Assembly (NCBI GenBank): GCA_951406725.2
Contig: OX597831.1
Span: forward strand, 45,880,001-45,944,000
Direction: 5' to 3'
Source of the DNA: Octopus vulgaris
Taxonomy: Eukaryota
Length of the DNA: 64,000 nucleotides
Under the pieces are notes generated by a model, which saw only the letters and a list, made by a program, of their open reading frames with translations, had not been told where the DNA came from and did not search any database. Below are positions 14,814-53,914 of this stretch, piece after piece; the stretch's first letter is position 1, and each line of letters opens with the position of its first letter. Made by a program: the position numbers and the translations under genes.

Positions 14814-14842
14814 TCAGTGCTGTTTCCTTCTGAATGAGCAAC
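14814..14842 (-). CDS. RPS27: RPS27 copy A exon 4
   Basis: ctacag|[37 protein letters not shown]. Confidence 0.95.
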
Positions 14843-17800
14843 CTGTAGAAACAAAGAAAATTTGCTTTTACTCACAATATAAAGCATGTAATTCAATGGC
14901 AAATAGTCTCAAGAAAAACTTAGCGAAAACAAATTGTACTTAAGCTTTTGCGAAAACACATATATTGTGGTATGGCCACCAAAAAACCAATACTAGTGCC
15001 ACATAAAAAGCACTGGTGCTGGTGCCATGTAAAAGTACCCAGTACACTGTAAATCATCATCATCATCATCGTTTAGCGTCCGTTTTCCATGCTAGCATGG
15101 GTTGGACGGTTCTACTGGGGTCTGTGAAGCCAGAAGGCTTCATCAGGCCCAGTCAAATCTGGAAGTGTTTCTACGGCTGGATGCCCTTCCTAACGCCAAC
15201 CACTCCGAGAGTGTAGTGGGTGCTTTTTACGTGCCACCCGCACAGGTGCCAGACAGAGCTGGCAAACGGCCACGAACGGATGGTGCTTTTTATGTGCCAC
15301 CGGCACGAGGGCCAGTGGTATTTGGAGGGGCATCCAGCTGTAGAAACTATGCCAGAACAGACAATGGAGCCTGAGGCAGCCCTCCAGCTCCTGTCAAACT
15401 ATACAACCCCTGCTAGCATGGAAAACGCATGCTAAATAATGATGATGATGATGTTCACTCATGGCATCAAAGTCATCCATTAGGCTTTTGACCATGATTT
15501 TGGAAAGACACTCTTGATTGTTAGAAAGGGCCTCCAGCTGTAGAAACTCTGCCAGATCAGATTGGAGTCTGGTTCGCCAGTCCTCAGTCAAATCGTCCAA
15601 CCCATGCTAGCATGGAAAGCAGACAATAAACGATGATGAGGACTCTTAATTAATTTTCCCATAAGTTGATTTTTATTTGATGACTTGGCTGGCAGACAGC
15701 TGAACATAAACTACAAAACACTAATTTATAAGTAACTATAATTTGTCATATCCAGCTCAGTAAACTTGAATATTTACACAAGAAATTCTTAACTGTTTTG
15801 AACCCAAAACACCTGAGACTGTCCCTAGTTCAATGAGACAAACTTCTACTTTTAACCTTTTCATTACCATATTCTTGTAGATACATACTGCTTTTTGTTT
15901 CATTAATTTTGAAAGCAACAAAGAATTTAATAAAATTTTGTTATTTGAAACAAAGTACCATGAAATTATAAGGGAAAGTTTTAATTTACTCTTTCACTTG
16001 TTTCAGCCATCTGACTTTGGCCATGCTGGAGCACCATCTTTAGACGTGCACATCGACCCCAGGACTTATTCTTTGTTAGCCTAGTACTTATTCAATCAGT
16101 CTCTTTTGCCAAACTGCTAAGTTACGGGGACATAAACACACCAGCATTGGTTGTCAAGCGATGTTGGGGGAACAAACACAGACACACACATACATATATA
16201 TATATATATATATATACATATATACGACGGGCTTCTTTCAGTTTCTGTCGACCAAATCCACTCAAGGCTTTGGTCGGCCCGAGGCTATAGTAGAAGACAC
16301 TTGCCCAAGGTGCCACGCAGTGGGACTGAACCCGGAACCATGTAGCTCGTAAGCAAGCTACTTACCACACAGCCACCCCTACTCTTAGGAAATTGAGATC
16401 ACTTCAAAAAAAAGATTTTGTGATCTAGAACCACATGTGCTCTTGGTATGAAAAGGGTTAAAGTGATCTAAATTTAAAAACTTTCCATCAAAATTCCATA
16501 TCAATTTATGTGTCAAACACCAGCTTAATAACCACGAAATTATTTTACTAAATTCTTCACTATTTTCAAAATTAATTGAATCAAAGATCAGATGTTTCAA
16601 CAGAAATATGGTTACAAGGGTTTCAAAATTATTATAGTTTTCCACTAGCAAAAACCACACCTTGAATTTCCCTCATTAGTCATGGCACTACCTCTATGCA
16701 TAGATCATAAATAGCTACAAACTAACTAGAGTAGTGTGTCATTATCATCATCATCCTCACCATGATAATAATAATCCTTTCTTTACTGCCCACAAGGGGC
16801 TACACACCGAGGAGGCGATCAAGGACAGACAAACGGATTATGTTGATTATATTCAATCCCAGTGCATGACTGGTACTTATTTAATCGACCCTGAAAAGAA
16901 TGAAAGGCAAAGTCGACCTTGGTGGAATTTGAACTGAGAACGTAGCGGCAGACGAAATACCGCTAAGCATTTCGCCCGGCATGCTAACGTTTCTGCCAGC
17001 TCACCTTAATAATTCTTTCTACTACAGGCACAAGGCCTGAAATTTGGAGGTGAGGGCTAGTTGATTACATCGAACCATGTGTTCGACTGGTACTTATTTC
17101 ATCAACCCCAAAAGGATGAAAGGCAAAGATGACCTCGGTAGAACTTGAACCCAGAACGTAAAGATAGATGAAATGTCACTAAGTATTTTGACCAGTGTGC
17201 TAATGATTCTTCCAGCTCCCCACCATAATCATATAATAATTTTACATCCACTTTTAAAAGCCAGCATGAATGAGCTGGACAAATCATCATGGGTTGATTC
17301 AGATCTTACTCAAAGTTACTGTCCTACTAAATGACCAGAGACTGCATTATACCTTAACTAAATTTTAAATTGTCACTTCAAATCAGTTCTTATCATAAAC
17401 TTTAACATCTCTAGTAAATTAAAAATTTCCCATATAAAAACCAGAGAAATTTTTAAAAAACATCTCATTTGAGAAACAAGGGTTGATGGTAGGAACTACA
17501 TACAGTAATGATATGGTAGCTATAAAAATGATGACACACTAAGGAAATAATATTGTAGAGTGGCAAGTCAGAAAACAGCTAAATCTTCCTCAATATTATT
17601 TCCTTTGTTAAGAGACCAAAGTCTTAATACAAACCCCACACTAGTAACAGCTTAACACACTGATTAAAAAAAAAATTAACAGGTCAAATGAAGCAAAGCT
17701 AAAACACTCTACTCAGCAATTACATTAAGCTAAAATTTTATGTAAATTACTTGTGCTACATTCATTCACACTGTTGTACAAGTCACTTAAACGCCTACTC

Positions 17801-52900: not shown

Positions 52901-53914
52901 TGTTATTTTTTTTTTTAGTGATTGATCTTGTAGATATTAAAGCAATAATAACAGACATTTGAGACATCATCACTACTCACACGTTTGATTAACTATCTCA
53001 CATACAAGTAAAAAAGACCTAGCATTTATATAACTATGCAAGACATCATGCAACAAAATAAGGAACAGTGTCAAACATGTGTGTCTGAATTAGTAGCAGC
53101 TGTAGAAATATTGCCAGATAACACTGGAGCCTGGTGCAGCCTTCTGGCTTCCCAGATCCCCGGTCGAACCGTCCAACCCATGCTAGCATGGAGAACGGAC
53201 GTTAAATGATGATGTTCTATCCTTCCTTATGAAGGATGCTAATTTCAACTGTTGAGTTTAAAATTTACCCAACTGTACATAACATCCTCATTTTTCATTG
53301 TTACAAGTTCATCTCGAGTATTTACAAAAATTTGGTTTCCTGTTATATTACGTACATCTTTGTACATAAAATATTTTCCTCAATTACATGTATTTACTTG
53401 AGTGCGATGATTTTGAATGTGTGATCCCCTCCTCTGTATTTTGTAGCAAAAGATAAGTAATAAATTTTCTTTTTAACACTGCTACTCTCCCATTTTGAAC
53501 CCAATGTTTTGTATTAAATTTCTCTCATAATGAGTAAATAGTTAAATTCTTACCTTTTTGTATACTATGCAAGGTCAGCAGATACTTTCTATAAATGAAT
53601 ACCTTAGTCTTTACCATATTTTCCCACCCTCTTAGCTCAGACTTGTTTTATATTGTATATTGGAATTTTTTGATTCTGCAATGAGCATTAGCTTGTCATA
53701 GAACATGAGTGTCCTTTATGTTTGATTGGGTGAGGAGAGCTTTGATGCATTTCCACTTGAATGCTTGACTGTTAATATATATCGAAGCTACATACAGCTG
53801 TTGGAACAATGTTTTATTTTGTTAGTTTGAATAGGACTCTACAATAACAAGTCATTTAATAATTCTTTTTTCACTTTTTCTACAGGTTGTTCATTCAGAA
53901 GAAAACAACATTAA
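46970..53914 (+). CDS. RPS27: 40S ribosomal protein S27 (eS27), copy B; exons 46970-46975, 47600-47708, 50596-50706, 53886-53914
   Basis: Same 84-aa protein as copy A; GT-AG introns; AATAAA at 53948-53953. Confidence 0.96.
47600..47708 (+). CDS. RPS27: RPS27 copy B exon 2
   Basis: ttgcag|CTCGCC...CCAG|gtaagt. Confidence 0.96.
50596..50706 (+). CDS. RPS27: RPS27 copy B exon 3
   Basis: tccag|GATGT...GAAG|gtaaga. Confidence 0.96.
51268..51641. mobile_element. piggyBac-like MITE with a nested RTE-tail repeat
   Basis: TTAA|ccctttagcatt...aatgctaaaggg inverted ends; insert at 51390-51560. Confidence 0.75.
52279..53293. repeat. Long imperfect inverted repeat in RPS27-B intron 3 (arms 52279-52505 and 52928-53293)
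   Basis: For example aacagttgaaattagcatccttcataag pairs with cttatgaaggatgctaatttcaactgtt. The right arm is interrupted by a repeat at ~53097-53213. Confidence 0.88.
53886..53914 (+). CDS. RPS27: RPS27 copy B exon 4
   Basis: tacag|GTTGTTCATTCAGAAGAAAACAACATTAA. Confidence 0.96.

Follow-up and report, generated by a model that had tools for sequence, protein, structure and literature searches.

A cluster of three transcribed RPS27 genes with probably mosaic coding exons in Octopus vulgaris

The single-copy state of animal ribosomal-protein genes is attributed to dosage balance, although duplicates such as the adjoining RpS14a and RpS14b of Drosophila occur. Most animal ribosomal-protein families are single-copy (Mullis et al., PMC6993855), and the nine invertebrates surveyed for Rps27, which include one mollusc (Lottia) and no cephalopod, carry one gene each (Xu et al. 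2023, PMC10313321). The vertebrate Rps27 copies have been ascribed to genome duplication, and the retention of Rps27 and Rps27l by subfunctionalised expression is the title conclusion of the same paper (PMC10313321). Gene conversion has been described between duplicate ribosomal-protein genes of fungi (PMC6993855), and the Drosophila pair RpS14a/RpS14b has the same amino-acid sequence (PMC8887423). Here we describe a cluster of RPS27 genes, encoding the ribosomal protein eS27, in Octopus vulgaris. The window is a stretch of 64,000 nucleotides (contig OX597831.1, positions 45,880,001 to 45,944,000, assembly GCA_951406725.2), and window positions are counted from its first letter.

The cluster comprises three intact copies in the order C(-), A(-), B(+), spread over 84 kb of OX597831.1 (G000:C18 in our numbering). 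A six-frame motif scan combined with exon mapping placed RPS27-A and RPS27-B complete within the window with four coding exons each, where an earlier note on this DNA had located two complete, intron-containing genes. That note spoke of twins; they are in fact two of a trio, the intact copy C lying outside the window with its ATG 36.8 kb past the A stop codon (the flanks were read for 80 kb on the left and 60 kb on the right). Intron positions are the same in A, B, and C, the phases are identical in A and B, and all introns are GT-AG. The eS27 proteins of A and B, each of 84 aa, are identical, and the C protein carries a single change, H84Y. The A and B ATGs are 14,645 nt apart, and intron 1 measures 11,890 nt in A versus 624 nt in B, in agreement with the earlier estimates (14.6 kb; about 11.9 kb and 624 nt); the introns of C are 956, 3,568, and 3,454 nt long. 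The PF01667 (Ribosomal_S27e) domain is complete in the A/B-type and C-type proteins (E=1.5e-30, profile 1-55/55). A genome search with PF01667 returned four matches, exon 3 of A, B, and C plus an intronless fragment on C3. Searching the genome at the protein level added no intron-type RPS27 copy to these three, only about five intronless, damaged copies elsewhere.

Six control families (RPS26, RPL37A, RPS28, RPS21, RPL36A, and RPS25) had one intron-type locus each (6/6). These counts are lower bounds: the extra RPS21 matches were read and are intronless, those of RPS26 and RPL36A were judged by coordinates and stops only, and RPS28 and RPS25, with a single match each, were counted without inspection. 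The multiplication of eS27, in one of seven families tested, is unusual for this genome.

All three RPS27 copies are transcribed. The copy-specific untranslated regions (UTRs) of A, B, and C were all matched by transcript contigs from public runs; the possibility raised earlier that one copy is silent was checked in this way, and contigs carry private parts of each gene. Two studies gave contigs that match exon 4 of A and its private 3'UTR without a mismatch (X9, depth 71; X3, depth 753). The X3 depth of 753 over exon 4 and the 3'UTR compares with ~3 for the listed intron pieces of A, and the A contigs end at 14660 and 14638, 15-20 nt past each AATAAA. The first splice of B is present in X9 and X3 contigs, in which exon 1 letters are joined to exon 2. 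For C, one of four runs provided a 119-nt X9 contig that extends through exon 4 and the 3'UTR into a tail of 24 A's; X1 and X19 had no cover of C exon 4, and its cover in X3 is a B-type piece, such absence being uninformative. Contigs lying only downstream of C were detected in X1 and X3 (depth 3.9 and 27), and X2, from another organism, showed next to no exon cover. The splice across the 11.9-kb intron 1 of A is a candidate with indirect support. Ranking the expression of the copies by contigs was discarded, because none of the runs listed is on record as RNA and contig depth cannot rank genes; the ratio of the A 3' contig to the summed exon-3 depth (0.32 in X3, 0.04 in X9) is an unvalidated hint, which we did not use as evidence.

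The A and B coding sequences differ at 14 positions in 255 nt, all silent and including the stop codon (TGA/TAA), and our recount agrees with the earlier one. Replacement and silent changes number 0/13 for A-B, 1/9 for A-C, and 1/12 for B-C, with synonymous divergence (dS) of 0.28, 0.19, and 0.26, respectively; this range of 0.19-0.28 goes together with mostly unalignable introns. Under neutrality, 0 replacements against 13 silent changes would have a probability of ~3e-9, and the RPS27 copies are under strong purifying selection.

The silent differences are not spread alike over the exons. Counted over exons 2/3/4, they number 1/8/5 for A-B, 3/2/6 for A-C, and 4/6/3 for B-C, such that A resembles B in exon 2 and C in exon 3. 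For B-C the exons do not differ in silent divergence (P=0.76), but for A-B (P=0.007) and A-C (P=0.005) they do; which copy is the odd one out depends on the exon (permutation P=0.013, 19 sites), and exons 2 and 3 differ for A-B (Fisher P=0.03). The acceptor flanks partly follow this pattern. Before exon 2, 18/20 nt match between A and B; before exon 3, A and C align with a score of 45, and A and B, over ~100 nt, with a score of 62 (27 non-matching intron pairs: mean 24, maximum 43). The remaining A/B intron matches are shared dispersed repeats. The description of introns and UTRs as unalignable thus held for the UTRs of A and B, which are unrelated, and for most of the introns, but not for these two flanks. 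The switch of silent partner by exon suggests gene conversion, in which A probably traded sequence with B over exon 2 and with C over exon 3, and since conversion is likely, the identity of the A and B proteins is not evidence of selection alone. An attempt to date the conversions by retrocopy alleles was uninformative, because C>T/G>A decay makes up most of their changes.

As in the fungal duplicates, the coding sequence of the octopus copies is far closer than their introns and promoters, and conversion would add to purifying selection (PMC6993855). In fungi, duplication extends to most families and the donor is proposed to be cDNA (PMC6993855), whereas in the octopus one family of the seven tested is affected. 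Because the octopus similarity reaches slightly into the acceptor flanks and switches at exon borders, genomic donors would fit better than cDNA.

Outside the coding exons, the copies fall apart differently. AATAAA follows the stop codon after 129 and 155 nt in A and after 33 nt in B, as had been estimated (~130-155 and ~35 nt). In B and C alike, a TATA box lies 54-58 nt and a TCT/terminal oligopyrimidine (TOP)-like motif 26 nt upstream of the ATG; their 5' regions are 75.6% identical over 41 nt (score 56 versus a null maximum of 43) and their short 3'UTRs 76% alike (score 45 versus a null maximum of 36). Compared with B/C, the A promoter (score 17) and 3'UTR (score 22) are unrelated. The candidates upstream of A exon 1 are a TATA ~98 nt from the ATG and, at 83-91 nt, TCT-like starts. 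In a TOP/TCT promoter the transcript starts within a pyrimidine tract. Judged by motif, B and C each have a candidate start of this kind 26 nt upstream of the ATG, and A has several; a B retrocopy begins at this point. This retrocopy, L021, carries the B 5'UTR, aligned from 28 nt before the ATG at the pyrimidine tract, and another, L002, carries the B 3'UTR; both are 13-19% diverged and already have B-specific UTRs. None of the six retrocopies examined carries an A UTR.

The ratio of observed to expected CpG (o/e) at the gene starts is 1.31 in A, 1.04 in B, and 0.89 in C, versus 0.46 in the window, and the CpG-rich zones of A and B are separated by ~12 kb at o/e 0.2-0.75. A bidirectional promoter has its starts within ~1 kb on one CpG-rich promoter. 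A shared A-B promoter of this kind was ruled out, because the starts are 14.6 kb apart, each in its own CpG-rich zone, and the gap between them is CpG-poor. The genes are head-to-head as the earlier note had it, A(-) and B(+), but with two promoters the arrangement has no evident regulatory meaning. Hosting of small nucleolar RNAs was set aside as a reason for retention: the 103.9 kb spanning all three copies gave no match at the Rfam gathering score, undescribed families being possible.

The octopus genes resemble vertebrate Rps27/Rps27l in belonging to the same family, in having three introns, in differing almost only silently, and in that more than one intron-containing eS27 gene has been kept (PMC10313321). 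The vertebrate genes are ohnologues from whole-genome duplication, lie on separate chromosomes, differ at three N-terminal positions, and show demonstrated inverse expression (PMC10313321), whereas the octopus trio forms one 84-kb cluster, has 0-1 protein differences and likely conversion, and is known here from sequence and contigs. An origin by whole-genome or large segmental duplication, with copies on separate chromosomes, does not describe the trio, all of which lies within 84 kb of G000:C18. As to whether the proteins can stand in for one another, this is trivially so for A and B, which are identical, and C differs at residue 84. The trio may work like Rps27/Rps27l but is no member of that pair. 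Drosophila RpS14a/RpS14b offer a likeness as invertebrate ribosomal-protein duplicates with identical proteins; the majority of the fly pairs treated in that paper have unlike proteins and gonad-enriched expression (PMC8887423), and fly RpS27 is single (PMC10313321). The proposal of a convergent, vertebrate-like pair survives in part: the surveyed invertebrates are single-copy and A has its own promoter and 3'UTR, but the genes are three and conversion is likely; a housekeeping B beside a tissue- or stress-specific A, the example that the earlier note gave, is a hypothesis. Our literature searches listed no paper on cephalopod RPS27 copies, and the main text of the octopus ribosome preprint mentions neither S27 nor paralogues. 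PMC10230085 was set aside as a precedent, as it concerns Rps27a, a different gene.

The explanation we favour, with a probability of about 0.5, is that the trio arose by old local duplication, that its protein is kept by selection together with exon-sized conversion, and that the copies are retained to share the supply of eS27, with A under separate control. An ancestral gene would have been duplicated locally with inversion, A becoming the copy that diverged furthest in its noncoding parts, with a later split of B from C; the introns would have been filled independently by repeats until their homology was lost. Exons 2 and 3, at ~110 nt, may be long enough for occasional ectopic conversion at the DNA level between neighbours. 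A exon 2 would thereby follow B and exon 3 follow C, while the 29-nt exon 4 went on diverging. It is the divergence of exon 4 and the UTRs that leads us to read A as an old copy. B would be the likely main TOP-type copy and C a second one. A, whose promoter is its own and whose longer 3'UTR has two poly(A) signals, would make this protein for different cells or states, the part that Rps27l plays beside Rps27. The A and B proteins being identical, any difference between these two genes is purely regulatory, and A, having its own control regions, may be used in different cells.

Several observations weigh against this explanation. The public runs were guessed to be RNA, and their contigs have flat depth and carry no tissue labels; the splice from A exon 1 to exon 2 is absent from the joints displayed, which were swamped by repeats (849 more were undisplayed), and contig depth over the A exon 1 bin is low (6.5, 1.0, 0.02, and 0). 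A also has TCT-like motifs and may be TOP-regulated too. The conversion tests had 19 variable sites only, the adjacent-site runs test (P=0.16) and the direct comparison of A-B with A-C over exons 2-3 (P=0.09) were non-significant, and exon 4, with its 5 silent sites, accounts for much of the heterogeneity of A-B and A-C. Ahead of exon 3, the A intron aligns better with that of B (62) than with that of C (45), which a single A-C tract leaves unexplained and which calls for layered events. The gene being highly expressed, selection on its silent sites is another possible cause of low dS. The small number of sites, the two non-significant tests, and the flank before exon 3 would suit independent old duplicates with no gene conversion, in which low and uneven silent divergence reflects codon or splicing-signal selection plus chance. 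This account, which concerns only the upkeep of identity and fits either reason for retention, deserves serious attention but is the less probable one: codon selection would not switch the partner of A between exons (P=0.013), and if silent sites changed at the B-C rate (0.217), 3 differences among 49 of them would have P=0.003, though the two exon pairs were chosen with the data in view.

Plain dosage or backup would have the three copies co-expressed everywhere in fixed ratios, the A UTRs being drift of the oldest copy. The presence of A, B, and C in run X9, the CpG-rich starts and TCT-like motifs of all three, and the tendency of neighbouring duplicates to share regulation (PMC10313321) are consistent with it. 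We regard it as doubtful, however, because with one intron-type locus in each of six control families, extra eS27 alone has no obvious use, and because the promoter and 3'UTR of A are unrelated to those of B and C, which are themselves ~75% identical there.

Records from other species, like the diverged retrocopies with B-specific UTRs, speak for an old origin of the trio. P0232 (the A/B protein) and P0234 (the C protein) are each recorded in O. bimaculoides and in one further RefSeq Octopus record; P0232 also has two O. vulgaris models, perhaps from the same assembly. In O. bimaculoides, the RPS27-like isoform X1 has an N-terminus that corresponds to window 32215-32152, immediately within A intron 1; this places the A 5' end at ~32.3 kb for a second species, which is likely to have three genes as well. 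The isoform X1 model has an N-to-D change, so strict protein identity is not universal. An Argonauta protein shows four differences, and a stretch upstream of it resembles, by eye, the B/C leader. On an alternative at the protein level, the Tyr84 form of C or an N-terminally extended A isoform would serve specialised ribosomes or an extra-ribosomal role. Tyr84 occurs in C-type proteins of at least two other Octopus records, chain 9eho_cc of the octopus ribosome structure 9EHO is identical to the C-type (Tyr84) sequence, and the extended A-type model exists in O. bimaculoides. We nonetheless consider such specialisation very improbable: A and B are identical, the last eS27 residue varies in molluscs and crustaceans (H, P, N), the 9EHO sequence may merely be the reference chosen by its depositors, and a conserved extended A isoform was ruled out in this genome, where the extension is out of frame and broken by stops. 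An alternative donor at 32152-32237 would yield an unproductive transcript, possibly an autoregulatory splice of A. That the trio is an assembly artefact, a set of allelic haplotigs, or young duplicates heading for loss is largely refuted, as the earlier note expected of an artefact, since the copies have little in common in introns and UTRs, the private UTR of every copy turns up in public runs, no pair has more than one replacement at a dS of 0.19-0.28, and O. bimaculoides has matching QH, QY, and A-type models, even if the O. vulgaris protein records, perhaps from the same assembly, are non-independent.

Other database entries concern the wider family. P0123, a public 164-aa model of C, has its first 82 residues mapping to two upstream stretches that replace the Met-Pro exon, and its N-terminus is likely spurious, an annotation error. 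P0233 (labelled Littorina) and P0018 (Argonauta) each comprise two same-series accessions for identical eS27 proteins. A mollusc-wide duplication was considered and rejected: the paired P0233/P0018 records and several from Candidula hint at duplicates elsewhere in molluscs but may be isoforms or haplotigs, and Lottia has one copy. Among the matches listed (15 of 55 main-cluster members), there was no named eS27 record from squid, cuttlefish, or Nautilus. The coordinates of the RPS27 features are collected below.

Table 1. Features of the RPS27 cluster (window positions unless a G000:C18 position is given or implied by its length).
Feature	Position	Strand	Remark
RPS27 cluster, window part (A + B)	14638..53970	.	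exon mapping
Copy C (L019)	G000:C18:45849693-45858017	-	outside window
Copy C coding exons	45857990-45857985, 45857028-45856920, 45853351-45853241, 45849786-45849758	-	exon mapping
A exon 4 + unique 3'UTR	14638..14842 (coding 14842-14814)	-	AATAAA at 14684 and 14658
A exon 3	17939..18049	-	8 differences vs B, 2 vs C
A exon 2	20321..20429	-	1 difference vs B, 3 vs C
A intron 1, 11,890 nt	20430..32319	-	at least 24% locally repeated sequence
A coding exon 1 (Met-Pro), donor GTTAG	32325-32320	-	sole ATG-CCN-GT candidate on that strand, 20430-32325
Isoform X1 N-terminus match, alternative 5' donor region	32152..32237	-	reading frame not kept in O. vulgaris and broken by stops
CpG-rich 5' region of A	31300..32400	-	CpG o/e 1.31 vs 0.46 whole window
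TA/CT simple-repeat array upstream of A exon 1	32462..32906	-	without counterpart at B or C
B TATA, TCT/TOP-like start, coding exon 1	46910..46975 (coding 46970-46975)	+	homologous to C
B exon 2	47600..47708	+	joined to B exon 1 letters in X9 and X3 contigs
B exon 3	50596..50706	+	exon mapping
B exon 4 + short 3'UTR	53886..53970 (coding 53886-53914)	+	3' end approximate

The long open frames identified between C and A are transposon pieces. In this interval, window 3318-5288 (-) holds an open frame of 657 aa in which two FLYWCH domains accompany a Mutator-like element (MULE) transposase domain just below the cut-off, apparently an intact Mutator-like element or a domesticated gene. Reverse-transcriptase fragments of the long interspersed nuclear element (LINE) type lie at window 440-1601 (+), and a mariner-type helix-turn-helix fragment lies inside A intron 1 (26733-27260, +). 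A intron 3 contains a full-length match to U4 small nuclear RNA at window 16572-16705 (-), scoring 50.9 bits against a cut-off of 46; elsewhere the genome has seven partial matches at 79-87% and no other full-length copy, and the sequence is probably a decayed U4 pseudogene. A 221-nt stretch is shared at 90.5% identity by the A-B gap (window 42807-43027) and C intron 3 (L019:878-1098), the only two full copies in the 204 kb examined. Left of C, the frames at G000:C18 ~45832-45841 kb (L009, L008) are ones that we take, by eye, to encode an acetate-transporter-type membrane protein and a YRDC/Sua5-like protein, and they can serve as anchors for synteny. Among the control families, L031 (G000:C24:29496676-29496912) is an intronless retrocopy of RPS21 whose open frame is complete and whose C-terminus is altered, seemingly a young pseudogene or retrogene, and G000:C9:104514308-104514816 holds two damaged RPL36A-like copies in opposite orientation, ~90 nt apart.

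The cluster of three eS27 genes is real, expressed, and apparently undescribed. RPS27-like proteins on record and retained ribosomal-protein duplicates were already known; of the cluster and its probable mosaic history we found no earlier description. Previously, eS27 duplicates were tied to vertebrate genome duplications, whereas the octopus trio is old, local, and expressed, and it provides a second natural experiment on why eS27 is kept in several copies. In practice, RPS27 counts, primers, and knockdowns in octopus must separate three copies. Octopods might even have repeated the history of Rps27/Rps27l by local triplication, conversion fixing the protein and A serving a distinct cell class or state such as post-mitotic neurons or stress, a proposal that we hold to be improbable. 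If A did act in a distinct cell class or state, eS27 would be a ribosomal protein that has repeatedly been split in expression in big-brained lineages.

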